The notes under the pieces: model-generated
Database searches by the model: none
Told to the model about the DNA's origin: nothing
Seen by the model: only the letters and a program-made list of their open reading frames with translations
IMG/VR virus record: IMGVR_UViG_3300034137_000009
Span: 1 to 62,985 of that record
Length of the DNA: 62,985 nt
Strand: one strand, 5' to 3'
DNA from: a virus
Lineage: Duplodnaviria > Caudoviricetes
Shown here: positions 8,600 to 58,765 of the stretch, piece by piece
Layout: every line of letters begins with the position of its first letter
How positions within the stretch are numbered: the stretch's first letter is position 1
Made by a program: the position numbers and the translations under genes

Positions 8600-8778
8600 C
8601 GAAGAGTATCTGCATGTGGTACATCGGCCCAGACAAGCTCGAGTGCGGTGCGCCAGCCGTAACCGATGTCACCGTCAAGACCCGCGTCACCCAGGCGGTC
8701 GTGACCCTGTGCGCCAAGCACAAGGCCATCCACGACGAGAACTGGGCACGCGCCCGCAACTCACCGAAGGCAAGCTGA
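8596..8778 (+). CDS. small Cys/His zinc-binding protein
   Basis: C..C...CAKH; GTGA coupling. Confidence 0.6.
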   Translation: MTKSICMWYIGPDKLECGAPAVTDVTVKTRVTQAVVTLCAKHKAIHDENWARARNSPKAS

Positions 8779-8810
8779 CCACCCACTCCCCCACCGGGAA
8801 GGCATCACCA

Positions 8811-10364
8811 ATGACAGAAGCAGTGAAGTCCTGCCTCTCGTGCCCGTCCTACCTGACGGAACCCGCTGAGGTCGTCTCTAAGTTCAAGAAGTCGATCGGT
8901 GCCCCCGTCTGTGGGCGCTTCGGTCACGCGCTCGGCAAGCCCGGCCTGCCCCCCAAGCAGGAGGAGAAGCTGGCGATGCACTACGGCAAGAACTGCCCGG
9001 CCTACGGGGAGCCCCTGCCCCCCGTGCCGCAGGAGCACCGGTTCCAGGTCATGCTCCCCGACCCGGTCGTCGTCTCCCGCACCCCCGACCCCGACATGCA
9101 GGCGCTCGTCAAGACGTGTGCATCCTGCCGTAACTTCGTCCGCGACGACACTGTCGCTACCGAGCTCGGCTGGGCCGCGGGTCTGTGTGCGGCCAAGGGG
9201 AAGCTCATCCTCCCGTCTCGCCAAGTGTTCGAGGCGAAGGACTGCCCGTCGCGTGAGTTCGGCTCGATCCGACAGAACACGACCGGGATGCACCTGCTCC
9301 CCGAATACGAGGACGCGTTTCAGCTGAACGCTGATCCCATCAAGGCCTACTTTAAGGCTAAGGAGGCCGGTGGTATCCCGGACCCCAAGGACTACCCCTC
9401 AGACCGCCCCGTGGCCCCGGACGAGGAGGCATCGGGCATCCGCGCATGGCGGAGGGTAGTTGACCCCGAGGGGTCCGGCAACGAGGTGTTCTTGCCGATC
9501 TACATGTCCTCCCACTTCGACGCCGAGGACCATGCAAAGATTCCCCAGGCTGGTGACGACGAGCACCCCGAGCTCTACGTCGACCACTTCGGCGGCGTCT
9601 TTGCGGCTGCTGTGTCGTGGACCGAGCTCGATGAGACACCCGCCCTGTGGGGTGAGGCCGGTGTCGGTAAGACTGAGCTGTTCCGCCACCTCGCGTACCT
9701 CATGCAGCTTCCGTTCATCCGCATCTCGATCACCGGCAGCACCGAGCTTGACGACCTGGCCGGCAAGATGCACTATGACCCCTCCAAGGGTACGTACTTC
9801 CAGTACGGTCGTCTCCCCCGGTCGTGGGGCAAGCCGTGTGTGCTGTGCATCGACGAGCCGAATGTCGGTCCCCCCGACGTGTGGCAGTTCCTCCGGCCAC
9901 TGACAGACAACAGCAAGCAGCTCGTTCTCGACATGAACGAGGGTGAGACGATGAAGCGTCACACTGACTGCTACCTCGGCATGGCGATGAACCCCGCCTT
10001 CGATCCGAAGAACGTCGGCACGCAGCAGATCGGTGACGCAGACGCCCGTCGCCTGTTCCACGTGTGGGTTCCGCTGCCCCCCGAGGAGCTCGAGCGTGAG
10101 ATCATCGCCAGCCGCGTTGCACTAGACGGGTGGGAGATCGACAAGGGTCGTCTCGACGGAATCATGCAGATCAGCACCGAGCTGCGCGGTCTGTGCCGCG
10201 AGGGTACGCTCCCCATCACCTGGGGTGTGGCGCAGCAGATTAAGGTGGCTCGCGCCCTGCGTTGGTTCACCCCCACAGTCGCCTACCGGCGTGCCGTGGC
10301 CGACTACCTGGAGCCCGAGGCCCAGGACGCCCTCCTGGACGTGGTCCGTGCCAACTTCGCCTAA
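8811..10364 (+). CDS. MoxR/CobS-like AAA+ ATPase with two N-terminal Cys-rich repeats
   Basis: Walker A GEAGVGKT, Walker B LCIDE, sensor AMNP; N-terminal CLSC..C..C and CASC..C..C. Confidence 0.85.
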   Translation: MTEAVKSCLSCPSYLTEPAEVVSKFKKSIGAPVCGRFGHALGKPGLPPKQEEKLAMHYGKNCPAYGEPLPPVPQEHRFQVMLPDPVVVSRTPDPDMQALVKTCASCRNFVRDDTVATELGWAAGLCAAKGKLILPSRQVFEAKDCPSREFGSIRQNTTGMHLLPEYEDAFQLNADPIKAYFKAKEAGGIPDPKDYPSDRPVAPDEEASGIRAWRRVVDPEGSGNEVFLPIYMSSHFDAEDHAKIPQAGDDEHPELYVDHFGGVFAAAVSWTELDETPALWGEAGVGKTELFRHLAYLMQLPFIRISITGSTELDDLAGKMHYDPSKGTYFQYGRLPRSWGKPCVLCIDEPNVGPPDVWQFLRPLTDNSKQLVLDMNEGETMKRHTDCYLGMAMNPAFDPKNVGTQQIGDADARRLFHVWVPLPPEELEREIIASRVALDGWEIDKGRLDGIMQISTELRGLCREGTLPITWGVAQQIKVARALRWFTPTVAYRRAVADYLEPEAQDALLDVVRANFA

Positions 10365-11657: not shown

Positions 11658-14540
11658 ATGACAACAACGTCAGCTGACATCTTCAGCACCAAGAACAACG
11701 TCACCCTGTCGGACACCGACGAGAAGGCAAGGCGGGCGGTCAAGGCCTTCCGATCCCTGCAGCCGACGCTCAGCGCCTACGCCCGCGTGCTCACCAAGAA
11801 CCCGCGCATCGTGGTCGAGATGTCGTCCTCGGACAACGGCTCAACCGACGGCCACAAGATCTACTATCGTCCCCCCATCAGCCTCGGCGAGGACGTTCAG
11901 CACGATCGTCGGCTGTGCGACAAGCGCGACGCCGACCTCACCCCCCTGTGCCGGGCGTGCGAGGTGCGCGAGGACACCCTCGTGACTATCTATCACGAGA
12001 TCGCCCACATCGCTTTCGACAGCTTCGCAGAGACGAAGGACGAGGAGCGTGCTGCGCTACTCGAACGTGCTATCAAGGAGCACGGCGGCCGGTACGCCGC
12101 GCTGCTCCGCCGCAAGATCGAGGTGGCCCCGTCCTACGTGAAGAACTCCTACATCGGTATGGCCGGGTTGATCTCCGACTTTCTCCCGTTGCTGGTCAAC
12201 TGCCTGGAGGACGCCCGCGTCAACCGCGAGATGTTCACTGCCCGCAAGGGCACCAAGGTCATGTTCGATGCCAACACCCACCGTATCTTCGAGGGTGGTG
12301 TCGAGCAGCGCGACCCGAAGACCGGCAAGATCATCACGGTGATGTGGAACGAGTACCCGCTCAACATGCAGGCGCTTGTCGGCGTCTTCTGCAAGGCATC
12401 GGACTACAAGTACGACACGTGGTTCGCCCCCCAGGTCGTTCGCGCCCTGGACGACGCCGAGCTGACCAACCTCGTCAACCGTATGCGGACCGTGCGATCC
12501 GCAGCCGGTGTGTACGAGCTGTCCTTCCCCGTGCTGGCGCGCCTGCGTGAGCTCGGGTTCTGCAAGCTTCCCGACGACCCCGAGCCCGAGCCCACCCCCG
12601 AGGAGAACGACGATGCCCCCCAAGAAGAGGACACCGATCAGCCCGACGAGGCTGACGACGACGGAGGGCGAGGAGGAGATGACAAGCCCGATGCCGACTC
12701 CGACGGACCTGCCTCCGACGGCGACGACGATCCCGAGGGAGACGCCCCCGAGTCTGAGTCCGAGGACGAGGCCACTACAGGGGAAGGCACCGATGCCTCC
12801 GATGGCGGTGAGCCCGACTCCAACGATGATGGAGATGCTGGAGGAACAGGCGCAGGCGAGGATTCAGGCGATGAAGAACGAGGCGAAGGTTCTGATGGCG
12901 ATGGAGCCGAGCCCGAGGAGGCTGGAGCCGACGAGCCCAGCGACGATGCCGGAGACGGCGCAGGAGCCGGTGACGACGGGGAGGCCGATGCCCCTTCGGA
13001 CACCGGAGATGGTGAGGCGGCAGAGGGAGCACCTGGCGAGGAAGGTGATAGCGAGCCCGGTGCGGGGTCTGCTGGAGACGGAGCACCAGTTTCACCCGCA
13101 GACGGATCTGGCGACGATGGTGACGCTGGCGACGGCGAGCCTTCCGATGCCCCCGGAGCCGAGTCTGAGGACGGTGCTGGCGACGGGGGTGATCGTGAAG
13201 CGGAAGGGGGTGAAGGTGACACTGATGCAGCAGCCGAGCCCGACGGGGAGGCCGGTTCTCCGACAGCAGCTGGACAGCCCAACGCTGGACACGCCGAGGG
13301 TGACGACCGGGACGGGCACCCCGAAGGTTCTGATGGAGCACGCGAGGACGACGCTGGAGCTGCTCCTGAGGGTGGAGCCGAAGCTGATCCCGCCGGGCCC
13401 TCGGTGGATGGGGATTCTACGGAGGCGGTAGACGACGAGGTGATCGACACCGGTGCTGACAACGGCACCGGTGGGATCAAGGTCAACGAGTCGGACGACC
13501 CCGATCTGCCGATGGGCACCCCCGACGAGGTGAAAGCCGGTCTGGTCAAGTTCGGCGACCACGAGGAGAAGCCCAAGTCGGTTGATCAGGTCCGCGACGA
13601 GATGGCTGTAGACAAGGCCATCGTGCAGGGCGCGTACTTCGAGACGCCGTCGTCTAGGATTCACGGCGTGCGTGAGCACCGGTACGGCAAGCCCGAGATC
13701 GATCGGCACGGCTTCGACTTCAGCCGTGCATGGAAGAACCTCGGTTCGTACTTCGGCTACTCGACAACCGCCCTCGGACAGGACGGGGAGTTTCTCCCCA
13801 CCGAGAGTGTCCTTGGTCCGGCCCTACTGAGGATGCGGGTCGCGTTCTCCGACAACCAGCGTGGCAACATGGCGCGGCACAAGCGTTCGGGCAGGATCAA
13901 CGGCGCTGTACTGGGTAAGCGTGCCCCCCTGGAGGATGGTCGTCTTTTTCAGAAGAAGACCATGCCTGGCAAGAAGGACTACTTCGTGCTCATCGGTATG
14001 GACGTATCTGGTAGCACCGTTGGCCAGAACATCGTGCTCGAGAAGCAGGCCGTCATGGCGCAGGCCGAGCTGTGCAGGCGCATGGGCATCCCCTTCGCCA
14101 TCTTCGCGCACAGTGGCAACCACCACGACAGCCAGAACGGGTCCGTTGGCATCGACCTTGACATCTACATCATCAAGGAGCCCGGTGAGGTGTGGGACGA
14201 CAAGGTCAAGGAGCGTCTGCTCAAGATCGGTCCCGATGCAGCCAACATCGACGGTCACACGATGGAATACTACCGCAAGGTGCTTGACGGTGTGGATGCG
14301 ACCGACAAGATCATCATGTACTACACCGACGGCAAGATGCCTGCGGAGAACTACGATGAGGAGTTGGAAATCCTCCAGCGCGAGCTCCGCATCTGCAAGC
14401 AGAAAGGCTACACCGTCATGGGTGTTGGCATCCGTACCGACTCCCCCGTCCGACACGGCCTCGATACCGTGCAGGTTGACGGTCCGGCCGATGTTGGCAG
14501 GGTCGTGCGTCACCTCGAGAAGAGGTTGACGGGTGCTTAG
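11658..14540 (+). CDS. CobT-like VWA-domain protein with N-terminal HEXXH and long acidic linker
   Basis: YHEIAH and LEDARV motifs; MIDAS DVSGS, YYTDG; D/E/G/A-rich linker about 12570-13500. Confidence 0.85.
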   Translation: MTTTSADIFSTKNNVTLSDTDEKARRAVKAFRSLQPTLSAYARVLTKNPRIVVEMSSSDNGSTDGHKIYYRPPISLGEDVQHDRRLCDKRDADLTPLCRACEVREDTLVTIYHEIAHIAFDSFAETKDEERAALLERAIKEHGGRYAALLRRKIEVAPSYVKNSYIGMAGLISDFLPLLVNCLEDARVNREMFTARKGTKVMFDANTHRIFEGGVEQRDPKTGKIITVMWNEYPLNMQALVGVFCKASDYKYDTWFAPQVVRALDDAELTNLVNRMRTVRSAAGVYELSFPVLARLRELGFCKLPDDPEPEPTPEENDDAPQEEDTDQPDEADDDGGRGGDDKPDADSDGPASDGDDDPEGDAPESESEDEATTGEGTDASDGGEPDSNDDGDAGGTGAGEDSGDEERGEGSDGDGAEPEEAGADEPSDDAGDGAGAGDDGEADAPSDTGDGEAAEGAPGEEGDSEPGAGSAGDGAPVSPADGSGDDGDAGDGEPSDAPGAESEDGAGDGGDREAEGGEGDTDAAAEPDGEAGSPTAAGQPNAGHAEGDDRDGHPEGSDGAREDDAGAAPEGGAEADPAGPSVDGDSTEAVDDEVIDTGADNGTGGIKVNESDDPDLPMGTPDEVKAGLVKFGDHEEKPKSVDQVRDEMAVDKAIVQGAYFETPSSRIHGVREHRYGKPEIDRHGFDFSRAWKNLGSYFGYSTTALGQDGEFLPTESVLGPALLRMRVAFSDNQRGNMARHKRSGRINGAVLGKRAPLEDGRLFQKKTMPGKKDYFVLIGMDVSGSTVGQNIVLEKQAVMAQAELCRRMGIPFAIFAHSGNHHDSQNGSVGIDLDIYIIKEPGEVWDDKVKERLLKIGPDAANIDGHTMEYYRKVLDGVDATDKIIMYYTDGKMPAENYDEELEILQRELRICKQKGYTVMGVGIRTDSPVRHGLDTVQVDGPADVGRVVRHLEKRLTGA
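12613..13431 (+). CDS. candidate overprinted ORF (+1 frame) inside the VWA gene
   Basis: GAGGAG 7 nt before ATG; 272 codons open; host-frame codons shift to GAT/GGA/GCT/GAA here. Confidence 0.45.
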   Translation: MPPKKRTPISPTRLTTTEGEEEMTSPMPTPTDLPPTATTIPRETPPSLSPRTRPLQGKAPMPPMAVSPTPTMMEMLEEQAQARIQAMKNEAKVLMAMEPSPRRLEPTSPATMPETAQEPVTTGRPMPLRTPEMVRRQREHLARKVIASPVRGLLETEHQFHPQTDLATMVTLATASLPMPPEPSLRTVLATGVIVKRKGVKVTLMQQPSPTGRPVLRQQLDSPTLDTPRVTTGTGTPKVLMEHARTTLELLLRVEPKLIPPGPRWMGILRRR

Positions 14541-36498: not shown

Positions 36499-37281
36499 TT
36501 AGGCTCCCATCAGAAGAAAGGGGCTCATGTCGCCACCCCCGGTCGGGGCATCTGCCCACTCGACATCGTAGTTGGCGGCGGTGCGCTTGCGCGGAACCTG
36601 CCCGACCAGACCGCCAACGGGCAGCCCTGGTCCGGCCGCTCCGGTGTCACCCTTGACACCCTGAATGCCCTGCGCCCCGGTGTCACCCTTGACACCCTGG
36701 ATGCCCTGTGCGCCGGTGTCGCCCTTGAGTCCCTGGATACCCTGGGCGCCGGTGTCGCCCTTGTCGCCCTTGAGTCCCTGGATACCCTGCGCACCGGGAT
36801 CACCCTTCAGACCCTGGATACCCTGGGCACCCGTGTCGCCCTTGAGTCCCTGGATACCCTGCGCGCCGGGGTCACCCTTGTCGCCCTTGAGTCCCTGAGG
36901 TCCGATGTCACCCTGCGGTCCCTGGATGCCCTGTGCGCCGGTGTCGCCCTTGAGTCCCTGGATACCCTGAGCACCGGTGTCGCCCTTTAGTCCCTGGGCA
37001 CCGGTGTCACCCTTGACGCCCTGGATGCCCTGGATTCCCTGAGCGCCAGTGTCACCCCTAGGACCCTGGATGCCCTGGATTCCCTGTGAGCCGGGATCGC
37101 CCTTGTCACCCTTGATACCCTGCACGCCCTGGGGACCACGCGTTGTTAGTTCGATGGTCGTGAGGCTAGGCACTACCGGCTGAGCAAGGACCCTCGACGA
37201 GACGACCGCGATAACCTCGACACCGGGCTGGTCCGACGGGACGACTGAGACGGAGGTACTGAGAACCTCTACATCTGTCAT
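36499..37281 (-). CDS. collagen-like tail fibre protein
   Basis: Long Gly-X-Y tract; GLPVGG..GQV..K....YDVEW C-terminus. Confidence 0.85.
36620..37140 (-). repeat. collagen-coding tandem repeat
   Basis: Repeated [12 protein letters not shown]-coding 36-45 nt units. Confidence 0.85.
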
Positions 37282-37631
37282 ACCCGCGTGACCTCCTTGA
37301 CCACCGTGACCGTGCCTCGCAGATAGGTGTTCACCTCGCCGGTTGCCGTTACCTGAAGCTGAACGTCCCACACACCACCGGTCGTGAGTGCAGAGGTCTG
37401 CGCTGAGGTGAGCGTCAGCAGAACCGACCCACGGTTAGCCAGGACAGACTGATCCGGGATAGAGGTCGAAAACTCCGCCAGGACGGTGGGGGCATCCGTG
37501 TTGGAGCGAATCTGCGCCTTCGCGATCTGCCCGGTGAGGTCGATGTATGTACCACCCTCATCCCGGAGCCGGAAGAACACACGGAAGGTGTCGCCCTGGT
37601 AGATCTGAATATCGTACGTGCCCGGTATCAC
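37278..37631 (-). CDS. BppU-like baseplate/fibre attachment protein
   Basis: IYQGDTF...IDLTG..AKAQIR...WDVQL...[12 protein letters not shown]. Confidence 0.75.
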
Positions 37632-37787
37632 CAGGAACCTCCGCTGAATGCTGGGCTGATTGTAGAGGAGGTCGTAGGACCAGACAGCACCGATAGCTCC
37701 TCATCTTCGCCAGGGACTACCACACTAGCCCCATACGCGCTAGCATGGCTAGCACGGCCCGACAACTACGCGAGAGGCACCCGTACT

Positions 37788-38033
37788 GTGAGTGAGAATC
37801 CGGACACCCCGCCGACCGAAGAGCCTAAGGCTCCGACCGTCGAGCCCGAGGTCGAGCAGATCATCGAGGAGGACGACGGCGTACCCGAGGTAAGTCCCTT
37901 CACGATGTTCATGGGTGACGAGGACCGCATGTTCGACTTCAGACCTCGCCCGGTGGATGAGCCCGAGGTGGAGCCGGAGCCGGTCCCAAAAGAGGTCTCC
38001 TCGCCTCCTTCCTCGCCGAAGAAGCCGACGTAA
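37788..38033 (+). CDS. acidic/Pro-rich protein; probable N-terminal part of a frameshifted WhiB
   Basis: GAGAGG upstream, GTG start; contains C_CCA_AAA at 37985-37991. Confidence 0.6.
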   Translation: MSENPDTPPTEEPKAPTVEPEVEQIIEEDDGVPEVSPFTMFMGDEDRMFDFRPRPVDEPEVEPEPVPKEVSSPPSSPKKPT

Positions 38034-38233
38034 GCTGGCAGAGCGAGGCTGCCTGCAAGGACGAGGACCCCGAGTTGTTCTTCCCCGAAAAGGGGCAATC
38101 AGCTATGGGGAACAAGGCGATCATGATTTGCTTCTCGTGCTCCGTACGTGCGGAGTGCAAGGAGTATCGGGTAAGCACCGGCTCGGACTACGGCATTTGG
38201 GCTGGCGAGTTCACTAAGCGACACGGAAAGTAG
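37985..38233 (+). CDS. whiB: WhiB-family transcription factor domain (no in-frame start; -1 frame of the upstream ORF)
   Basis: WQSEAACKDEDPELFFPEKG...ICFSCSVRAEC...YGIWAG; four Cys and GIWxG; absent from the ORF track. Confidence 0.85.
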   Translation, partial: PKRGLLASFLAEEADVSWQSEAACKDEDPELFFPEKGQSAMGNKAIMICFSCSVRAECKEYRVSTGSDYGIWAGEFTKRHGK

Positions 38234-38237
38234 GACC

Positions 38238-39425
38238 ATGAGGCCCAAGTCATTGAGCGCATCCGCGCTCAGCGTAGCGGAGCTGTGCCTGGCAAGGTAC
38301 AAGGCCGAGCAGATTGAGCGCGGTAGGGGTGCCGGTAACTCGGCGGCATCGGTGGGAACATCAGTACACGGTGCACTCGAGATGTTCGTCAAGGCAACGC
38401 GGCCTGAGTTGGGCGGCAACCCGGCCATGGGTGGGCTCGACACCATCGAGATGTTCTACCGCACCTCGTACATGGACACCTTCAACACCTCGGATGCGTC
38501 CGGCGAGTTCTACGACGACGGTTGGGACCTCGTCAAGAAGTGGCACGGCCGTCAGGACTGGGAGGGCGTAACTGTCCTGTCGGCTGAGGTAAAGGAGAAC
38601 TTTCCCGTCAAGGCGATGTTTGAGGGGTCGCAGATCGAGATCCCCTTCAACTACATCTGGGACCGGCACGACCAGATCGGACCTACCGAGTATCGCGTCG
38701 TGGACTACAAGACGAACCGGTGGGGCATCCGACCCGACGACCTCAAGAAGAAGATCCAGGCGCGGTGCTACGGTCTTGCCGCGCAGATCAAGTACCCCGA
38801 GGCTACACGTATCTGGGTGCAGTTCGACATGCTGCGTCACGACCCGGTCGGCATCGTCTACTCTCGCGACGAGAACATCGCTACCTGGCGGTTCATCCGT
38901 GATCTGACCCAGCGTATCCTCGACACCCCGGTGGACGCGGTGAAGGAGACACTCAACCCCGAGTGTCGGTTCTGCGTTCGCAAGCTCAAGTGCTCGGCGC
39001 TTCAGGCAAACATCGCGGTCGGCGGTGCCCTCGGCATCACGTCAGCCAAGGAGGCCGTCGACATTCGGGCAACCCTGGAGTACCAGAAGTCGGCTATCGA
39101 GTCCGCTATCCGCGACCTCGATGAGATTGTGCTTACCGAGGCGCGGGCGACCGACGTGCTCGAGTTCGAGTCCGACATGAACCGCCTCAAGATCGGCGTG
39201 TCCGGCCGACGTGGCGTGGACGCCGAGCGTGCCCGCATGGTTCTCGGTGACGACCTGTTCGGAAAGTACGGCTCCGCATCTATCACCCTGGGCACGGTGG
39301 AGAAGCTCCTCAAGGGGAAGGACCTCACCGAAGACCAGAAGAAGCAGCTCCGCGGGCTCATCAAGGTGCAGACCGGCGAGCCACGGGTCAAGGTAGAGCC
39401 CAAGAACAGTCTCGAGGAGGACTAA
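38238..39425 (+). CDS. Cas4/RecB-like PD-(D/E)XK exonuclease
   Basis: LSAS..C, GTSVHGALE, WDRHD..VVDYKT, Q..CY, CRFC...C. Confidence 0.85.
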   Translation: MRPKSLSASALSVAELCLARYKAEQIERGRGAGNSAASVGTSVHGALEMFVKATRPELGGNPAMGGLDTIEMFYRTSYMDTFNTSDASGEFYDDGWDLVKKWHGRQDWEGVTVLSAEVKENFPVKAMFEGSQIEIPFNYIWDRHDQIGPTEYRVVDYKTNRWGIRPDDLKKKIQARCYGLAAQIKYPEATRIWVQFDMLRHDPVGIVYSRDENIATWRFIRDLTQRILDTPVDAVKETLNPECRFCVRKLKCSALQANIAVGGALGITSAKEAVDIRATLEYQKSAIESAIRDLDEIVLTEARATDVLEFESDMNRLKIGVSGRRGVDAERARMVLGDDLFGKYGSASITLGTVEKLLKGKDLTEDQKKQLRGLIKVQTGEPRVKVEPKNSLEED

Positions 39426-50041: not shown

Positions 50042-53000
50042 CTAACCCGCCAGGTTCTCGAGGTTGCGGAGGAACGCCTCGGCATCGTCACCGGACTTGA
50101 TGTTCGGCAGAACCAGATCGCCGTTGATGTTGATGGTACGCGCTCCGTTGCTCTGGTTGGCCGGGACGGGTGCCTGCTGGGTCACCGACGCTACACGACC
50201 GGCCGCCGATGCGACGAGCCCCGTGGCGGCCCCTCCACCGCCCGTGGGGAGGTTCTCGATGCGGTTGACGGTGATGCCACGGTCGAGGGATTCCTTTACC
50301 CCGGCGGTGACGGTAGCGATAGCACGGAAGCCGTCGTCGAGACGCCCGAAGAACTGCGTAAGCGGGACGACGGCCTCGGGACCACGCTCACCGATGATGG
50401 CGTTGGTGGCGTTGTTCACGATGCCACCCTTCGCCATCTTCAGCGTAAGGCCGTACATGTCGGCGTACGCGAGCTGGCGCGGCGTCAGCTGCGAGCTCGA
50501 CATGTGCTGGATGAGCCAGTCATTCTCCGGCGTCTGCTTCGGCAGCGGGTGCGCAGCGATAGACTTCTCGAGCGCAATTGCAGCCGGGTTAACGAAGGCC
50601 GCCAGCGCGTCGGCACCGGGCGCCTTGCCGTTACCGAACGCGGTAGAGCCCGTAGCGGACTCGGTGGCGGGAACGTCCGGCGCACTGGTAGCGGCGGCCT
50701 GCGCCTGGGCGATAGCATCCGCATTAGCCTGGGCAGCAGCCGCAGCTGCACCGGCAGCGGCCGCAGCGTTGTTTGCAGCCTCAAGTGCCTGGTTCGCCGT
50801 CTCCTGTGCGCTAGCGACCTGGGTACGCAGCTCATCGAGGACACCACCGATAGACTCGGCAAGGGACGCGATAGCCTCGACCAGGGTCTGCGTGTCCTCA
50901 CGACGGTTCACGTCGTGGTCGGTCAGTAGATCGGTGAGGGAAGTCTGCGCCTCGACGAGGGCGCTAGCCTCCGTAGCCCAGTTCTCGACAACGGCCGCGT
51001 GGTTGGCGGTCAGCAGCTCGATGAGCGCGGTGTTAGCGTCCGTGTCGAATATAAGCCGTGCATCGTAGAGCTCCTGTGCCTTCGCGAGGCCCTCGGTGTG
51101 GAGCGTAGTAAGCTGCTCACCCAGGGTCGCCGTCTGTGCCGTGATGGCGTCGACGATACCGCTGTTACCGAGCGTGATGCCCCCGATGATCTGTCCGGCC
51201 GTGGTGCGCTCACCCTCGAGCCACATCGTCTCCCAGCGGGCCGCACGGAGCGCGCTGTCGAGGTTGAGCTGGTTGACCGCCGAGGCGGTAGACGTAAGCG
51301 CGTCCATGAGGGGGCCGAGGGGCATAACCGCCTCGGGACCGGCCTCACCGATCACCGCAGTCGTTGCACGACGGACGATACCACCCTCGGCGAGCATCGG
51401 CATCCTGGTCGGGACAACACCACCCTCGGCAAGGGCCGCGTGAACGTGGTTCCAGTGGTTGCCGGGCTCACCGGGACGACCCCAGGCGTAGCCGGGAACC
51501 TGGCGACCGTTCTTGATGTTGAAGGGGGCACCCGCGAGGATAACCTCCTTCAGACTACCGGCAATCGGCATGAGGGCGTTGAAGATGGCACGCAGGCCAG
51601 AGTTGCCGAATCCCTGGTTCTTGTGAACGGCGGGACCACCGTGGGGCTGGTAGTCAACAGCGCGACCGGTCTGGTGGTAGGAGCCACCGTCACCGGGACG
51701 CACGGTAGAGGTAATGACCTTGTCGAGGCCGGGGGCGTTCGCGTTGAGCCAGTTGTCGATACCCCTCCACCCGGAACCGGCCGGAGCGCCGTTACCAGGG
51801 GAGAGAGCGGGACCGGAAGAACCAGCGGCGGCAGCTGCCGCACGAGCCTCGGCCTCAGCCTTCTTGTCGTACTTGTCGGACTCGCCCTTGGCCCAGTTGT
51901 AGAAGGCGTTCTTGCGGTTGTTAGCGATCTCACGAACCGGACCGCGAAGATCGGTCGCGTCCATCGCCAGGTCGTAACCCTTGAGGAACGGCGCCAGCGC
52001 GGCCATGACCGCACCCTTCTGAATCGCGCTACCGACCGCCGCGACACCAGATGCAACCGCCCCGGCGGCGTCCTTAACGGCCCCCCCGACGCTACCGGCA
52101 GCGTCCCTGGCCTTGTCGAGGATGCCACCGTTCTCGTACTGCGGGACGTTGAGTCCGAGGTCCTTAGTCAGCTGGGCGTGCAGCTGGGTAGCCCGACCCC
52201 GGAAGCGCGGGTCGGTCGGCACAACGTACTCTGGGTGGCTAGAGCTTCCCTCACCGACGATGGCACGAGCGCCCTTGGTCTTGAAGCCAGCACCAACCGT
52301 GGTCTGCGGAACGTAACCACCGACGGCCAGCTGCGGAATCTGCGGGATGAGGTCGATCTTGAGGCCGATGCCGAGCTTGGACCCGACCGCGTTAAGGCCC
52401 TTGAACAGCGTGTTGATCGCGCTGGTGACCGCGTTAATACCACCGATGATCTTGTTAATACCGCCCTTGCCGTACTGATCCCACAGGGAACCAAGGCCGC
52501 TCATGAAGGCCTTCCAGGCGGGCTGAACAACCTTGTCCCAGAGGAACGTGAACGAGTTGCCAAGAATAGTAAGTGCGGTACCGATTCCGTCGAGAACCGG
52601 CTTACCGAGGGACCTCCACGCCGTGCCGAGGTAGCCCGTGAACCTGTCCCACAACGGCTTGATAACGAGAGCGTAAACATCCTCGAATGCCTGACCGAGA
52701 ACCTTGAGGGCAACACCGATACCGTCGAGGACCTCCTTGCCAAACTTCCATCCGGCCTTGAGTCCACCGGTGAAGGCGTTCCATGCCGGGCTGATCACCT
52801 TCGTCCAGATGAGCTCGAAACCCTCACCCATGATCTTGAGGGCACCCACGATGGCGATGAGCAAGACCAGGCCCACCGTCTCCCATACCCGCTTGACGGT
52901 GCCCCACCACAGGTTCCAGACCGGCTCGACAACCTTCTCCCAGACCCACTTGACGGCGGTGCCGAGGGCCTCGAACAGGGTGCCGATGGCGGAGAACAGC

Positions 53001-56000
53001 GGCTTGAGAACGGTGTTATAGATGAACTCGAACGTAGCACCCATCGCCTTGAAGGTTGCGACGATAAGGTCGAAGATCGGGCTTGCGACGTTCTCCCACA
53101 GGAACTTAACGACGGCCCACAGGGCCTTGAACACGCCCTCGATAATCCCACCGAAGAACTTGAAGATGCCGATTACCACGTTGAGCACGGCCTGGATGGG
53201 ACCGGGCATCGCGTCATAGAAGTCCTGAGAGATGTCCTTGACGCCACCCCAGATGCCCTTGATTGCTGCCCAGATGAGAACACCGGCGGCCTTGATGATG
53301 TCCCAGATGCCCTTGAACAGACCCTCGACAATCCCCCACAGGATCTTGGGCACGTTCTCAAAGATGTTCTTGACCTGGTCCCACATCGCCTTGACGATGG
53401 TGACCACGCCGTCCTTGATCATAGCAAAGTCGCCGGTGAAGATGCCGATGAGCACCTGAACGACACCGCGCACCATGTCGATGAAGTTGGCGAACGACTT
53501 AATGACAAAGTCGAGCACCGGGCCGAGCGTCTCAGCAAGCACGGAAGAAATCAGCTTGAGCGCCGCGAGGAGCGGCACAGCAATCACCGCAACGATGATC
53601 TTGAGAACATTCCACAGCGCCTCGAGTGCGGGCATGATCAGCGGGAAGAATGCCGACACCGCCGGACCAAGCTCAGTCCACGCGGTCTTGAACGCCGTGA
53701 GGACGGCTCCCCAGATTGCCTTGAAATCCTCGGCGAAGAAGCCGTAGATCGCCTTGAGCCCACCCCAGAAAGCGTTGACCCCCACCATGATGCCAGACCA
53801 CATGGAGGAGAAGAATCCACCGACGGGGGCGAATGTCTCGGACAGCCAGGTGCCAGCAACGGCGGCACCACCGAACGGGTTACCCCCAGTGAACAGCTCC
53901 TTGACCGAGGTCCAGATCGGAATGACGTACGGGCCGACGTTGTCCTTGATCCAGGTCCAGGTCTTGCGCCACATGTCCTTGATCGGACCGAACATGTCAA
54001 ACTGGCCGAGCATCCCAGCGGTGTCGAGCGCGATACCCTTGGTGAATTCGTCGATAGCCTTTGACTGGTCCTCCAGGAGCGGACGACCGGGCAGCGCCTC
54101 ACGACCGATCTGCGCGTTACCGCCGACCTCCGGGAAGTTACCACCCTCAGCGTCCATGAAGTTCTGCTCAGCCGGACTAGGCTTCGGACCCTTTGCCGCA
54201 GCCGCAGCGGTGTTGATGTCAGCCGCAGTAGAGTTCATGCTACGGAGGGCGGCCTCCACCTCGCGAATAGCGTCGGCGACCTCCTCGTAGGACTGCTTGA
54301 CCTTATCAAGCTTCGCCTGCTCAGCATCGTACTGGGCCTGCACGGCGTCGCGGGCGATCTCCGCCTTCTTGATAGCCGCCTCCTGCGCCTCGACGGCTGC
54401 GGTAGCCGCAGCAATCTTCGGCGTGAGGGCGTCCATCGCGGCCTGCTCGGTCTTGATCCCGGCCACGATGGTGTCGAAGGACATCTCCTTCTGCGTGTTG
54501 GTGAGCTTCTCGATCTCGTGGAGGGCAGGGCCGAACTCGATGTCGTACTTGAGCTGCATAATCTCGCCCTGCGTCTGCAGCTTAGCGAGTGCGGCCTCAA
54601 GCTCGTCAATCTTCGCCTTCTCGCGGTCGTACGCCGCGTTAGCCGCATCACGAGTAGCGGCGGCCTCCTTGACGACGGCCTCCTGCCTACGAACCGCCGC
54701 CTCAGCCTGGTTGTAGGAAGGCGTGAGCTGGTCGATTGCCGCCTTCTCACGGTTGATCCCGGCAATGATCTCATCGAACGGCAGCTCGTTCTTCGCGTTA
54801 GCCAGTTCCTCGATCTGCCGCGTCAGCGGGTCGAAGTTGATCGAGTTTTCGAGATCGAGTCGCTCGCCCTCGCGGGCCAGCGCGTCGAGCTCCTTCTGCA
54901 GCTTCGCAATGCCGGTCTGGTCCATGGACGCCTCGAGCTGTGCCCGCTGCTTCTCCATGGCATTGAGGTTGTCCATCATCGGACCGGTGATGTCGCTGCC
55001 CGCGCCGGCCAGACGAAGGTCGGAGATCTCGGACTGCCCACGCTCGATGTCGCCCTGAAGCTCGCCGAGCTTCTTGCGGACATCGTCGATAGAACCGCCC
55101 GCGTCCTCCATCTTCATCATCTCGAGGCGAAGACGCTTCTGTGCCATCTGGTTCTCGAAGATCGCATCGGACATGGCCCCCATGCCCTTGATGGGCGTAG
55201 AGGCGTAGTCCTGCATGGCCTGCTTGTGGGCGTCGATCTCACCCCTGATGTCGGAAAGCTTAGCTTCGAGCTGGTCGAGGGTGTTCTTCTCCCTGTCGTA
55301 TGCTGCGGCGGCGGCATCGGCAGCGGCCTTGCTAGCCGCCCCCGTCTGGAGGATCTGCAGACGGAGCTTCTTCTGTGCTAGGTCGTTAGCAAAGATCGCG
55401 TCCTGCTGCTTGCCCATACCGATCAGCGGGGCAGTCGCATACGCCTCGAGCTTGTCCTTGTGTCCATCGTACTGTGCCTGCAGATCCTGCAGGTGGTCAC
55501 GAAGTCCGTCGAGAATAGCGTTCTGCTTGTCGAGTGAGGCGTTCGCCTCATCGAGACGGGCCTTCCAGCGGGCGACAACACGCTCCTGGCCCTGTACCAC
55601 GGCGTTCTGCCTAGCGAGCTCGGCGTTGAGCCCGCTCAGGTCACTGACAAGAGCATCGAACACCGGGAGGGCCGCGGGCTTGGCCTTCTTGACCTCCTCG
55701 CGCTCCTTGTTCCACTCACCGCCGCCCATGGAGGCGGCCATCTTCTTGTACGCAGCGAGATCACTCTTAGCCTTGGCCAGGATGCCGCCTGTGTTGCGCG
55801 CCATGAGCGCGTACTGCCCCGTGACAGCCGCCATACCGTTGGTGACATTCTCAACCAACGAGGGGCTGTGGTGTGCGAACGGGTTGAAGTAGCTGAACAT
55901 GTCGTAGACCGCAAGTGCGGCCTGACGAACGATGTCGACTACCGCCTGGAAGGCGTTGCGGACACCGAGGGGCAGCATGTTGAAGGACTTGATGATAGCG

Positions 56001-58765
56001 TTGGTGACGCCGCCGAAGTAGCCGGGCAGCGAGGAGAACCAGTCAACGATCCCACGCACGAATCCGCCAGTACCGCCGACGATGTCACGGTAGACAGATG
56101 CAATCTGGTCACGGAACAGGTAGAGAAGTCCGATAGCCCCGAGGACGGCCCAGCCGATCGGACCAGACAGTGCAACCGCGAGGGCGCGACCGATCAGCGC
56201 AAAGGACCGAACGCCCCCCGTAGCAAGGGCTATGAGAATACGGAAGCCACCGGCGAACAGCCCGGCAAGTGCGCCGGGTGAGGTCGCGAGAATGCGGATG
56301 CCAGCAACGCCAGCCGCCGCGGCCATGCCGATGGTTGCCGCGCCGACCTGGGCGATGAGGATGAGCGCCCGCCATGCCGCCGCGAATGCACCGCCGATGC
56401 CGAAGGTGATCACCGGCAGTGCGGCCATCATGGTGGACCACAGAACGGGAATCAGCGTGGTAAGGGTTGCGGTTCCGTACCGCATGAGGAACAGAACCGA
56501 GTTCCAGGCGGCCACCCATGCCGCCCCGATGGCGGTGGTCATGGCTGCGAGCCCGGCCATCATGCCCGCCCACAGCGGTCCTGTTACGGCGGCAAAGGTA
56601 GCGGTCGCGTAGCGCATGAGGAACAGGACTGTGTTCCACGCACCAGCGATAGCGTTACCGATGGAGATAGTCAGGTACCGCAGCATGAACATCATGCTGC
56701 CCCACAGCTGCCCGATCGGACCCGTGAGCGTCAGCAGCAGGTACCGCATGAGGAACAGCGTGCTAGCCCATGCAGCGGTGATCCCGCCGCCGATGGAGAT
56801 GGTCAGGTACCGCAGCATGAACATCATGCTGCCCCAGGCGGACGCAAGGGCGGGACCGGCAATGGCGGTGAAGGCCGTCAGGGCCGCGAGGAAACCTCGC
56901 CAGATGATGGTGCCGAACTCGACAAAGCTGAGCATGAGGTAGCGCAGCATGAAGAGTACGCTGCCCCACGCCGACGCAAGCGCCGCACCAGCGGGTGCGA
57001 GGACGGTTGCCATCGTGACCAGGAACCCGCGCCAGAGCATTGTGACCGCGTAGGCGAACGCACGGAACTGGGCACCGAACAGAAACCAGATGCCGGTCCA
57101 CACGGTGCTGAGCGCGGTACCGCCTGCAACGATGATCGTGGCAAGAAGCGGGAACAGACCGGTCAGCATAGCTGCAGTGCTCTGCGCGAGGTACACCATG
57201 ACAGCGGCAGAACGAACAGCGAACGTAGCGAAGGCAAGTGCGGCGGTACCGGCCCAGCCAACGATGGCGGGGATGGTCGAGAACAGCGCAACGGGCAGTG
57301 TGATCACTGCACCGAGGATGCCGAACAGGCCAGACATAATGGCACCGAAGGGTGCGGCGGCCATGAAGACCAGACCGCGACCGATGGCAAAGAACGGGGT
57401 CGACAGACCAACGGTGAACTTGGCGAGCGTGACGCCGAGGAGCATGAACGCACCGGTGAGCCGGGTCACCAGACCGAACACCATGACGAACGCGAGTGCC
57501 GCACCAACCATCTTGAGAATGGCGGGGTTCATCTCGCTGATGCGCTGACCGAGCATGGCGAACTGCTGTCCGGCGTACACCAAAACAGGAATGAGCGGCT
57601 GGATGATGTCAGCCATCACGTTCTGGAAGATAACACCGATCTGCTTCATCTTCTGCGGGTTCGACTCCAGGACAGCGTTGAGCTCGCGCACACGCTGCTG
57701 GTAGTTGCGAACCTCGCTACTGGTTGCGTTAAGCGCCTTCTGGTAGTACCCGTTCTTGTTGATGATGTCGCGCATGAGAACATCGAACCGGCTGATCTGG
57801 TACCGGCTAGCGATGTAGGTACTGACGACCGACTTCTGCGCATCGTCGAGGCCCTCAAACTTGCGGGCCAGCAGCTCGAGGCGCTGTGCGGCATTGAGGG
57901 ACTTCCAGCCCACCTCGGCGGTGCCAATGCCCATCTTGTGCAGCAGCTTGCTAGCGTCGTCGGTCGGGGCAAGCAGTCGGCTGATGATGGTCTTCAGTGC
58001 ATTACCGGCGTTCGCGGCCGTACCAGATGCAGGCACCAGGGCAGCCATCATCGCAGCCAGGTGACGCACGTCGACCCCAGCGGTTCGTGCCACACCCGCC
58101 GCACGCGCCAGGCCCTGCACGAGGCCCTGCATGGAGACACCGGTCTGGTTCTCCACCATGTTCAGGGTGTCGATGGTCTTGGCCAGCTCCTCAGTGGACT
58201 GACCGTACTGCGCCTGAATGGCGATGAGGGCGGTGGTAGCCTCCGCGGCCTCCATCTCACCCAAGACCATAGTCTCCATGGTGAGCTTGACGCTCTTTGC
58301 CAGGGCTAGACCAGATGCACCAGCAGCTGCCCAGTCGGCGGCGATGTTGATAACGTCCTTCTGCGCAACACCGAACCGGTTGGACAGCGCCTCAAAGGCA
58401 CGCTCTAGTGCGGGAATCTCGGTCTTTGCGAGCTGCTGAAAGACCTCGGACCCGTCGCCGTAGACCTTACGAACGCGGGTCATAGCTTTCTCGTTATCGA
58501 GAGCAAACTTGACCGCAGCGGCGCCGGCGATAGCCAACGGGATACCGAAGTTGTAGTGGATCTGACGACCGGTCGCCTGCATTGCGGTACCCCACCGAGT
58601 ACCGGCCTGCATGGCGCGAGCAAAGCTGTTACCGGCCAGGGCAGAAGTACGGTTGGACCGGTTGACCGAGGCGTCAAACGCGGCGATCTCACCACGCATC
58701 TGCCGCATCTGCCGCATACCGTTCGCGGCGAGAACGCGGATCGTGATATTCGCGTAGGCGTTCAA
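50042..58765 (-). CDS. tape measure protein (2907 aa)
   Basis: TP901-type N-terminus, W/F-spaced helical repeats, HSPS motif, C-terminal ITS..RPG..SYH..GRAVD...HWNHVH peptidase-like motif. Confidence 0.95.
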   Translation of the reverse strand: MNAYANITIRVLAANGMRQMRQMRGEIAAFDASVNRSNRTSALAGNSFARAMQAGTRWGTAMQATGRQIHYNFGIPLAIAGAAAVKFALDNEKAMTRVRKVYGDGSEVFQQLAKTEIPALERAFEALSNRFGVAQKDVINIAADWAAAGASGLALAKSVKLTMETMVLGEMEAAEATTALIAIQAQYGQSTEELAKTIDTLNMVENQTGVSMQGLVQGLARAAGVARTAGVDVRHLAAMMAALVPASGTAANAGNALKTIISRLLAPTDDASKLLHKMGIGTAEVGWKSLNAAQRLELLARKFEGLDDAQKSVVSTYIASRYQISRFDVLMRDIINKNGYYQKALNATSSEVRNYQQRVRELNAVLESNPQKMKQIGVIFQNVMADIIQPLIPVLVYAGQQFAMLGQRISEMNPAILKMVGAALAFVMVFGLVTRLTGAFMLLGVTLAKFTVGLSTPFFAIGRGLVFMAAAPFGAIMSGLFGILGAVITLPVALFSTIPAIVGWAGTAALAFATFAVRSAAVMVYLAQSTAAMLTGLFPLLATIIVAGGTALSTVWTGIWFLFGAQFRAFAYAVTMLWRGFLVTMATVLAPAGAALASAWGSVLFMLRYLMLSFVEFGTIIWRGFLAALTAFTAIAGPALASAWGSMMFMLRYLTISIGGGITAAWASTLFLMRYLLLTLTGPIGQLWGSMMFMLRYLTISIGNAIAGAWNTVLFLMRYATATFAAVTGPLWAGMMAGLAAMTTAIGAAWVAAWNSVLFLMRYGTATLTTLIPVLWSTMMAALPVITFGIGGAFAAAWRALILIAQVGAATIGMAAAAGVAGIRILATSPGALAGLFAGGFRILIALATGGVRSFALIGRALAVALSGPIGWAVLGAIGLLYLFRDQIASVYRDIVGGTGGFVRGIVDWFSSLPGYFGGVTNAIIKSFNMLPLGVRNAFQAVVDIVRQAALAVYDMFSYFNPFAHHSPSLVENVTNGMAAVTGQYALMARNTGGILAKAKSDLAAYKKMAASMGGGEWNKEREEVKKAKPAALPVFDALVSDLSGLNAELARQNAVVQGQERVVARWKARLDEANASLDKQNAILDGLRDHLQDLQAQYDGHKDKLEAYATAPLIGMGKQQDAIFANDLAQKKLRLQILQTGAASKAAADAAAAAYDREKNTLDQLEAKLSDIRGEIDAHKQAMQDYASTPIKGMGAMSDAIFENQMAQKRLRLEMMKMEDAGGSIDDVRKKLGELQGDIERGQSEISDLRLAGAGSDITGPMMDNLNAMEKQRAQLEASMDQTGIAKLQKELDALAREGERLDLENSINFDPLTRQIEELANAKNELPFDEIIAGINREKAAIDQLTPSYNQAEAAVRRQEAVVKEAAATRDAANAAYDREKAKIDELEAALAKLQTQGEIMQLKYDIEFGPALHEIEKLTNTQKEMSFDTIVAGIKTEQAAMDALTPKIAAATAAVEAQEAAIKKAEIARDAVQAQYDAEQAKLDKVKQSYEEVADAIREVEAALRSMNSTAADINTAAAAAKGPKPSPAEQNFMDAEGGNFPEVGGNAQIGREALPGRPLLEDQSKAIDEFTKGIALDTAGMLGQFDMFGPIKDMWRKTWTWIKDNVGPYVIPIWTSVKELFTGGNPFGGAAVAGTWLSETFAPVGGFFSSMWSGIMVGVNAFWGGLKAIYGFFAEDFKAIWGAVLTAFKTAWTELGPAVSAFFPLIMPALEALWNVLKIIVAVIAVPLLAALKLISSVLAETLGPVLDFVIKSFANFIDMVRGVVQVLIGIFTGDFAMIKDGVVTIVKAMWDQVKNIFENVPKILWGIVEGLFKGIWDIIKAAGVLIWAAIKGIWGGVKDISQDFYDAMPGPIQAVLNVVIGIFKFFGGIIEGVFKALWAVVKFLWENVASPIFDLIVATFKAMGATFEFIYNTVLKPLFSAIGTLFEALGTAVKWVWEKVVEPVWNLWWGTVKRVWETVGLVLLIAIVGALKIMGEGFELIWTKVISPAWNAFTGGLKAGWKFGKEVLDGIGVALKVLGQAFEDVYALVIKPLWDRFTGYLGTAWRSLGKPVLDGIGTALTILGNSFTFLWDKVVQPAWKAFMSGLGSLWDQYGKGGINKIIGGINAVTSAINTLFKGLNAVGSKLGIGLKIDLIPQIPQLAVGGYVPQTTVGAGFKTKGARAIVGEGSSSHPEYVVPTDPRFRGRATQLHAQLTKDLGLNVPQYENGGILDKARDAAGSVGGAVKDAAGAVASGVAAVGSAIQKGAVMAALAPFLKGYDLAMDATDLRGPVREIANNRKNAFYNWAKGESDKYDKKAEAEARAAAAAAGSSGPALSPGNGAPAGSGWRGIDNWLNANAPGLDKVITSTVRPGDGGSYHQTGRAVDYQPHGGPAVHKNQGFGNSGLRAIFNALMPIAGSLKEVILAGAPFNIKNGRQVPGYAWGRPGEPGNHWNHVHAALAEGGVVPTRMPMLAEGGIVRRATTAVIGEAGPEAVMPLGPLMDALTSTASAVNQLNLDSALRAARWETMWLEGERTTAGQIIGGITLGNSGIVDAITAQTATLGEQLTTLHTEGLAKAQELYDARLIFDTDANTALIELLTANHAAVVENWATEASALVEAQTSLTDLLTDHDVNRREDTQTLVEAIASLAESIGGVLDELRTQVASAQETANQALEAANNAAAAAGAAAAAAQANADAIAQAQAAATSAPDVPATESATGSTAFGNGKAPGADALAAFVNPAAIALEKSIAAHPLPKQTPENDWLIQHMSSSQLTPRQLAYADMYGLTLKMAKGGIVNNATNAIIGERGPEAVVPLTQFFGRLDDGFRAIATVTAGVKESLDRGITVNRIENLPTGGGGAATGLVASAAGRVASVTQQAPVPANQSNGARTININGDLVLPNIKSGDDAEAFLRNLENLAG

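Follow-up and report, generated by a model that had tools for sequence, protein, structure and literature searches.

In lambda and other tailed phages, Xu, Hendrix and Duda are said to have described in 2004 a programmed -1 frameshift for the tail assembly chaperones G/GT, and for the tau and gamma products of Escherichia coli dnaX a -1 frameshift at A_AAA_AAG, with an element like a Shine-Dalgarno sequence (SD-like) on its 5′ side and a stem-loop on its 3′ side, was reportedly found by Blinkowa and Walker in 1990 and by Larsen et al. in 1994. These systems are compared here with a gene for a transcription factor of the WhiB family, which lies at positions 37788 to 38233 of the 62,985-bp linear viral contig IMGVR_UViG_3300034137_000009 of IMG/VR (the window, in what follows, is this whole contig, a metagenome assembly with an estimated completeness of ~81%), and which is very probably expressed by a programmed -1 ribosomal frameshift out of an upstream open reading frame (ORF).

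As reported for G/GT, the locus would give a phage pair of products, a short one and a longer -1 product with a common N-terminal part, from a heptamer close to where the upstream ORF ends; as is also said of G/GT, the site is conserved across very divergent phages, and a strong 3′ structure is often missing. Unlike G/GT, which are virion assembly chaperones, the product here is an Fe-S transcription factor encoded in the early or replication region; and whereas the shift of the tail chaperones is reportedly annotated as a matter of routine in actinophages, that of WhiB is annotated in none of 12 phage records. With dnaX the locus shares a heptamer for tandem slippage that ends in a Lys codon, as well as an SD-like stretch ~5-14 nt upstream that could pair with the 16S rRNA; it differs in that the dnaX shift truncates the protein, whereas the shift in the window adds a functional domain, in that the window has no supported 3′ stem-loop, and in that its heptamer ends in AAA and not in AAG. 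The OrfA/OrfAB pair of the IS3 family, as usually described, likewise consists of a small upstream product and a fusion with the same N-terminus and a functional C-terminal domain that has no start codon, in a ratio that is regulatory; in contrast, there is no mobile element or transposase in the window, and the N-terminal module (N-module) is acidic and predicted to be disordered, in place of a DNA-binding domain. A fixed ratio of two forms that carry one binding module would fit the logic of both G/GT and IS3 OrfA/OrfAB.

Among the phage WhiBs themselves, those encoded by a single ORF (such as mycobacteriophage TM4 gp49 and Hammy gp53) have the same four-Cys PF02467 domain and a similar place among early or DNA-metabolism genes; unlike the WhiB of the window, they have their own start codon and no acidic N-terminal module. 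With the start-less WhiBs of Gordonia and Tsukamurella phages, the window shares the motif of the N-module, an in-phase heptamer followed by G, a Phe before the Trp of the domain, and a downstream exonuclease of the Cas4 family; unlike most of them, it lacks a Cys-rich linker of 40-70 residues, has GIWAG and not GIWGG, and shows no nucleotide similarity to the phage collection. This is a classical mechanism in a new class of gene, of which the short-linker form found in the window is a variant, and it is widely present yet unannotated in sequenced actinophages. With it, a transcription factor joins the short list of phage proteins produced by programmed frameshifting.

The two reading frames and the proposed slip site

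The frame that encodes WhiB is closed upstream by the TGA at 37958-37960 (plus strand), beyond which it stays open, in phase 2, for 90 codons, from 37961 to the TAG at 38231-38233 (translation P0001); as the initial annotation had proposed, it contains no ATG, GTG or TTG before its first conserved Trp (38036-38038) or its first conserved Cys (Cys1, 38054-38056). Before Cys1 there is not even a codon one base away from ATG, and the first canonical start of the frame, TTG at 38075, lies 3′ of Cys1. The WhiB domain (PF02467) occupies 38036-38206 on the plus strand, is recognized by Pfam over residues 26-82 of the -1 frame with a score of 63.4 bits (E 2.8e-17; curated cut-off, 23.6), and finds its best matches in the PDB in a Streptomyces WhiB (8dy7_H, E 2.1e-15) and in WhiB1 (5oay, E 1.7e-12; also 6ono); a six-frame search of the entire record gave this single WhiB match. 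The four Cys codons (38054-38056, 38129-38131, 38138-38140 and 38156-38158) correspond to C32, C57, C60 and C66 of P0001, in the pattern C-Xn-C-X2-C-X5-C, and all four are invariant in an alignment of 11 lineages. In WhiB-like (Wbl) proteins the cysteines of this pattern are the ligands of a [4Fe-4S] cluster, and a typical WhiB carries a G[V/I]WGG turn and then a basic C-terminal tail. The window has the turn GIWAG, followed by EFTKRHGK, with the basic tail present, and its relatives in the frameshift family have WAG, WNG or WGG. By homology, this WhiB would be expected to bind the principal sigma factor as well as a [4Fe-4S] cluster.

The zero-frame ORF that overlaps the WhiB frame runs from the GTG at 37788 to the TAA at 38031-38033 on the plus strand, with an SD-like GAGAGG (37772-37777) placed 10 nt 5′ of its start, and encodes an acidic, Pro-rich protein of 81 residues, which has no match among Pfam or PHROG families. 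The ESM Atlas gave no usable feature match for it and a model with a predicted local distance difference test score (pLDDT) of 0.25, and its N-module is predicted to be disordered. Within the N-module, residues 34-53 (37887-37946, plus strand) form a motif common to the upstream ORFs of the relatives, of the form hydrophobic-P...G...(D/N)F(R/G/S)(P/A), which in the window reads EVSPFTMFMGDEDRMFDFRP; in the alignment of the 11 lineages (A6) F51 and P67 never vary, and P37 and D50 hardly do. Searches against longer proteins with this ORF found nothing, and with the N-terminal part of its counterpart in Gordonia phage Newt they found four matches, none with a WhiB domain, which is weak evidence against the existence of a continuous fusion.

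Both frames are supported as coding by the G+C content at third codon positions, which over 37788-37984 is 0.82 in the phase of the upstream ORF versus 0.38 in that of WhiB, and over 38034-38233 is 0.77 in the phase of WhiB versus 0.48 in that of the upstream ORF. The two frames overlap for 70 nt, or 23 codons (37961-38030), and within this overlap lies the heptamer C_CCA_AAA at 37985-37991 (plus strand), followed by G, at which two tRNAs are proposed to slip in tandem into the -1 frame; its phase with respect to the upstream ORF, already pointed out in the initial annotation, is borne out by the codons GTC CCA AAA. A -1 slip at this point joins the first 68 codons of the upstream ORF to the 80 codons that go from AGA to the TAG (37991-38233, plus strand, stop included), that is, to the linker RGLLASFLAEEADVS and the WhiB domain. 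The translation, ...EPEPVPK-RGLLASFLAEEADVSWQSEAAC..., has the 148 residues initially predicted, beside the short product, which is the 81-residue protein itself; in the zero frame, 13 codons (EVSSPPSSPKKPT) separate the heptamer from the TAA.

An in-phase X_XXY_YYZ is found at only 9 of 10,738 codon positions in the 15 long ORFs of the contig, and just one of the nine has A or T as Y, so that by chance 0.019 such heptamers of any kind, and 0.002 of the A/T type, would be expected in an overlap of 23 codons; its presence there exceeds chance. Its codons are rare ones in those same long ORFs, where AAA makes up 8 of 384 Lys codons (2%) and CCA 46 of 567 Pro codons (8%), and the first codon of the -1 frame, AGA, 14 of 645 Arg codons; the remaining three Lys codons of the upstream ORF are AAG. 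In nine relatives (L142-L146, L148-L151), whose heptamer is C_CCT_TTA, the zero-frame codon of the A site is UUA, a codon normally very rare in actinobacteria of high G+C and used for one of 833 Leu codons in the long ORFs of the window.

The expression of the locus would then proceed as follows. Ribosomes would start at the GTG at 37788 and translate the acidic N-module; most of them would terminate at the TAA at 38031 and release the 81-residue protein, and a fraction, with tRNA-Pro and tRNA-Lys on C_CCA_AAA, would slip back by one base and continue in the -1 frame, giving rise to a 148-residue protein whose C-terminal 80 residues would be a complete four-Cys WhiB domain. A phase-locked X_XXY_YYZ is the signature of simultaneous re-pairing of the tRNAs in the P and A sites, and as there is no codon at which the WhiB domain could be initiated separately, the slip would be the only route to it. 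We infer both that the slippage is ribosomal and how efficient it is.

Conservation of the split among phages

Close relatives are few. At the level of nucleotides, a comparison of 37600-38400 with the phage collection by blastn gave no match, and at the level of proteins P0001 found among viral contigs only WhiBs of 40-44% identity. A scan of metagenomes gave 13 loci, all with identities of <=44%, and scans of genome contigs gave 43 loci and one locus, respectively, and to the frameshift family belonged none of them. A protein search by word index with P0001 gave two matches from four candidates, and a profile search of 1.84 billion representatives brought out a small subfamily of WhiBs with oddly truncated gene calls: four of them (P0002, P0006, P0007, P0015) are made to begin at a Met that precedes Cys1 by 5 residues, three (P0008, P0014, P0024) at a point after Cys1, and P0005 is cut at its 5′ end. 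Pattern scans of IMG/VR then yielded the family loci L018, L138, L139 and L152, L139 being, with 100% identity, Gordonia phage Orchid. When the phage collection was searched with the WhiB frame by tblastn, numerous phages of Gordonia and Tsukamurella came up, with matches that straddle two annotated genes.

In all, 17 loci were examined, namely the window, the uncultivated contigs L018, L138 and L152, Orchid in two records (L139, L141), and 11 further phages (RobinSparkles, Newt, John316, PokyPuppy, Dakiti, Eggsie, GTE7, TIN2, TIN4, GordTnk2 and Katyusha). Twelve of the 16 loci other than the window are records of cultured Gordonia or Tsukamurella phages with finished genomes, and the phage genera covered are Woesvirus, Montyvirus, Getseptimavirus, Tinduovirus, Demosthenesvirus, Orchidvirus and Gordtnkvirus. 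At every one of the 17, the WhiB frame stands in the -1 relation to an upstream ORF that overlaps it, and the overlap contains an in-phase X_XXY_YYZ; the continuous ORF that, according to the initial annotation, relatives might have carried is thus replaced in all 16 by the split, and the reading as a programmed -1 frameshift is supported. The heptamer is C_CCA_AAA in seven loci (the window, L138, L152, both records of Orchid, RobinSparkles and GordTnk2), G_GGA_AAA in one (L018), and C_CCT_TTA in nine (Newt, John316, PokyPuppy, Dakiti, Eggsie, GTE7, TIN2, TIN4 and Katyusha), that is to say, from one locus to another either X or Y is exchanged at all three of its positions at once, and the pattern and its phase are retained. 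The base after the heptamer is G in 15 of the 15 loci with flanks (the 17 minus the duplicate copies of Orchid and RobinSparkles). A second in-phase heptamer occurs in the overlaps of Newt (G_GGC_CCC) and Katyusha (C_CCC_CCG), and neither is conserved. In Orchid, RobinSparkles and GordTnk2 a TGA of the -1 frame lies directly 5′ of the CCC, so that entry into this frame is left only at the heptamer; in L018 the overlap, heptamer included, is just 28 nt long.

Protein conservation moves from the zero frame to the -1 frame at the heptamer. Over the 24 codons upstream, the mean pairwise BLOSUM62 score in the C_CCT_TTA group is 43.3 in the zero frame versus 3.9 in the -1 frame, and over the 24 codons downstream it is 53.3 in the -1 frame versus 33.2 in the zero frame; downstream of the site, the long-linker group with C_CCA_AAA has 51.0 in the -1 frame versus 13.7 in the zero frame. 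The -1 peptide is conserved from its very first codon, in the form PK-RLVC.G.CK or PF-RC.G.C, with Arg as the first residue in 10 of 11 aligned lineages (Ser in L018), and a Phe ~7-9 residues before the Trp of WhiB is conserved in 10 of 11 (alignment A5). In the window this Phe, which belongs to an ASF motif 9 codons past the slip, is encoded at 38009-38011, and this places the entry into the -1 frame between 37961 and ~38008.

Between the slip site and the WhiB domain a Cys-rich linker is found in 9 of the 11 lineages, and in the window and L018 there is none; with just 15 residues between the slip and the Trp, the window is therefore a short-linker variant, outside the long-linker subgroup. 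The long-linker relatives themselves (L139, L142-L152) have in their start-less -1 frame four extra conserved cysteines, C-x-G-x-C and, ~20-50 residues on, C-x-C-G-E-G, and these may constitute a metal-binding module. The shared motif of the N-module, the homologous nuclease and the same PHROG family of tape measure indicate that the window holds a diverged member of one old module.

In a comparison set of 136 loci with a WhiB match, which were fetched irrespective of the present question, 133 have a start codon before Cys1, and the exceptions are the window and the pair L032/L033. These last (L032:2890-3060, and L033, identical there, in IMG/VR contigs of 76 and 55 kb) have a WhiB frame with no ATG, GTG or TTG before Cys1, which overlaps an upstream ORF of 48 codons (MMAGFNLSVW...GLAS*) in the +1 and not the -1 relation, and which contains an in-frame CTG at S-L-D-W; candidate explanations for this are a site of +1 recoding, initiation at the CTG, and a gene that is broken.

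Alternative explanations, possible stimulators and possible function

An improbable alternative is that of two separate genes, in which WhiB would be begun by non-canonical initiation, or by re-initiation after the stop of the upstream ORF, and the family would in truth start at the Met that some relatives have 5 codons before Cys1. The four gene calls that begin at this Met agree with it, and at that position L018 has ATG and Katyusha GTG; in the window, however, the codon there is CAG, and the whole stretch from 37961 to Cys1 is devoid of starts and of one-base neighbours of ATG, as described above. Moreover, W-M-x-x-A-x-C, with its internal Met, is also found in ordinary WhiBs (P0004, P0061), the sequence of the -1 frame 5′ of the Met, with its Phe and, in the long-linker relatives, its Cys-rich linker, is conserved across lineages, and the three calls that start after Cys1 are what gene callers make of a start-less frame.

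Sequence error or recent mutation, that is, a deletion of 1 nt in the CCCAAAA run, either real or introduced in the assembly, which would leave a single ORF of 148 codons or a fresh pseudogene and no recoding at all, is quite improbable as the origin of the split. It is true that homopolymer runs are hot spots of indels, that one base added to this run gives the identical 148-residue protein, and that the record is an incomplete assembly from a metagenome. Against this, a Logan contig of 2,812 nt from run X1 spans 37400-38600 (1,201 nt) with 0 differences and 0 gaps at a k-mer depth of 9.2, and so the extra base envisaged in the initial annotation did not appear; the contig of the window carries uninterrupted ORFs of 2,907, 1,213, 967 and 960 codons, which implies that indel errors are infrequent in it; and all 16 of the other loci are split likewise, at sites of the same type, with no continuous fused form among longer proteins as a further, weak, indication. 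The identical Logan contig and the split in finished isolate genomes together speak against a sequencing artefact as the cause.

Transcriptional slippage, by which RNA polymerase would insert an extra base at the run of A or of C, so that part of the mRNAs would carry the fused frame, would give the same product and would likewise involve homopolymer runs, and is nevertheless very improbable, as the runs have just 3-4 bases (CCC, AAAA, TTT), and as what the family conserves is the phase-specific X_XXY_YYZ in three combinations of bases, rather than the length of a run. Known sites of transcriptional slippage need longer runs. Finally, a relic, in which all members of the group would have inherited an ancient frameshift mutation and the WhiB domain would no longer be made, is extremely improbable: the family members are indeed known only as sequences, but 11 of 11 aligned lineages keep an open -1 frame of 80-140 codons with the four Cys, and their WhiB parts, 39-53% identical to that of the window, with Pfam E values of 1e-11 to 1e-17, look as they would under purifying selection.

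With respect to the programmed -1 frameshift, which is thus the preferred explanation, several observations weigh against it. The frameshift product has been deduced from nucleotides in every member of the family; run X1 is probably the source sample of the record, and its contigs represent a second assembly rather than an independent proof at the level of reads; the short-linker form is found in two DNA loci only, the window and L018, and the closest protein relative (P0002, 73% identity over 65 residues, called from the Met 5 codons before Cys1) is known as a protein only. In favour of the frameshift, a start codon before Cys1 is missing from the -1 frame in 11 of the 17 loci; in the other 6 there is one, 5, 10 or 34 codons before Cys1 and always 3′ of conserved -1-frame sequence, and from it an independent short WhiB could in principle be made there.

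To the objections also belong the results on stimulatory elements. A stem-loop or pseudoknot 5-9 nt downstream is common at -1 sites of bacteria and phages, but is not required of every one of them. In the window, the 69 and 99 nt downstream of the heptamer fold no better than their shuffles (z +0.10 and +0.54); the corresponding folds of six relatives have z of -1.46 to +1.31, the consensus fold of the nine C_CCT_TTA loci reaches -2.0 kcal/mol with no covariation, and a search of Rfam gave no match. The letters of the small GAGG (37992-37995)/CCTC (37999-38002) stem to which the initial annotation drew attention are present, and a role of this stem as a stimulator is not supported: it has four pairs, begins right after the heptamer and lies outside the best fold. 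On the 5′ side, the SD-like GAGGTGGAG (37965-37973) and GGAG (37976-37979), together 37965-37979 on the plus strand and 5-14 nt from the heptamer, are also where they had been noticed, and their action as a stimulator is only suggestive. For the 20 nt upstream of the heptamer, the best duplex with an anti-SD string has -10.1 kcal/mol, a value that ranks within the top 3.8% for windows of the surrounding 4 kb; Orchid ranks in the top 0.8%, L152 in the top 2.9% and the Woes and Monty group in the top 6-10%, and 13 of 15 loci, which are related to one another, are among the best 18% when set against their own local background. Most of the relatives thus have G-rich elements of a similar kind. L018 and L138 show no such enrichment, with 31-38% of background windows equally good, and the stretch doubles as Gly and Glu codons. 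The slip could be favoured either by this SD-like stretch or by slow decoding of the rare codon in the A site, AAA here and UUA in the relatives with C_CCT_TTA.

As regards function, the purpose of the frameshift could be either a fixed ratio of two proteins with a common N-module (the forms of 81 and 148 residues would have 68 residues in common) or a low dose of the Fe-S transcription factor, and, as had been put forward at the outset, it might limit the dosage of a factor that is toxic. Overproduction of the phage WhiB Hammy gp53 slows the growth of the host, and the paper that describes this cites Rybniker 2010 for this effect of WhiB overproduction in the case of TM4 gp49 (PMC10700055). 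A more elaborate idea, tentative and rather unlikely, is that the motif of the acidic N-module (hydrophobic-P...G...DFRP) would serve as a short linear motif for docking to a host or phage partner, that the frameshift would set a fixed ratio of a decoy-like 81-residue form to the form that brings the WhiB Fe-S domain to the same partner, and that this ratio, determined at slip codons that would be the rarest of the genome (AAA here, UUA in the relatives with C_CCU_UUA), would track the supply of rare tRNA, hence the physiological state of the host; if it were true, the production of WhiB would be a translational sensor that times the take-over of the host. In the cultured Gordonia phages, recoding as a means of setting how much of an Fe-S regulator is made, or in which isoforms, can be tested directly.

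Public annotation and genomic setting

In the GenBank and RefSeq annotations of 12 phages, not one contains a joined coding sequence at the WhiB site. WhiB is annotated as a stub of 33 residues in Newt, John316 and Dakiti, with an internal start (GTG or ATG) in RobinSparkles, GordTnk2 and Katyusha, and not at all in Orchid, GTE7, PokyPuppy, TIN4, TIN2 and Eggsie, and the stub has even become a family in its own right (phrog_11832, with 33 positions). A whole group of sequenced actinophages has, therefore, a WhiB that is mis-annotated or unannotated. The upstream ORF corresponds to phrog_6890, labelled as an endonuclease, as in RefSeq, or to phrog_14812, neither of them with Pfam support, and the endonuclease label looks unfounded. 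Upstream ORFs of the Newt type match 82 phage records (76 of Gordonia and 6 of Tsukamurella, with GenBank and RefSeq copies counted apart) and those of the Orchid type match 6; the split architecture was verified in 12 isolate records of the ~90 that hold the upstream ORF. As a rule for annotation, an in-phase C_CCA_AAA, C_CCT_TTA or G_GGA_AAA should be sought 5′ of any start-less WhiB frame.

A full-text literature search, whose scope stopped short of subscription journals and supplements, found no report of a frameshift in WhiB. The word WhiB is absent from the papers on PRFect (PMC10885494) and on UUA in Streptomyces (PMC10732093), from the survey of Gordonia phages (PMC5559632) and from the announcement of Hotorobo, Woes and Monty (PMC4982279), and the word frameshift from the two on Gordonia phages (PMC5559632, PMC4982279).

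Directly 3′ of WhiB, at 38238-39425 on the plus strand, the window encodes a PD-(D/E)XK exonuclease of the Cas4 family (Pfam PF12705, E 5.1e-13), which is the syntenic neighbour of the module in the relatives and which, over its full length, is 36% identical to the Cas4-family exonuclease 3′ of WhiB in Newt (E 9e-78); a search with it among viral contigs found no relative. Scans of 37500-38400 for promoters and terminators gave no sites, and a search for tRNA genes gave none. The G+C content of the 62,985-bp record, which is that of an uncultivated soil phage, is 62.7%, and its sequence occurs in a run from a biocrust metagenome.

On the minus strand, at 50042-58765, lies the gene of a tape measure protein of 2,907 residues, which matches phrog_5448 (profile length 3,103), a PHROG family of very long tape measures, and which suggests that the tail is very long, as it is in the Hotorobo, Woes and Monty group; minor tail proteins of 1,213 and 967 residues come after it on the same strand. 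A tail fibre protein of collagen-like type, with long G-X-Y repeats, is encoded at 36499-37371 on the minus strand, and adjoining its gene, at 37278-37631, is that of a 117-residue protein of phrog_1084/phrog_3304, similar to those of tail fibre assembly. Elsewhere, on the plus strand, an ATPase (phrog_5424, 8616-10364) and a 960-residue protein labelled as one of cobalamin biosynthesis (phrog_5298, 11658-14540) resemble a pair of the CobS/CobT type.

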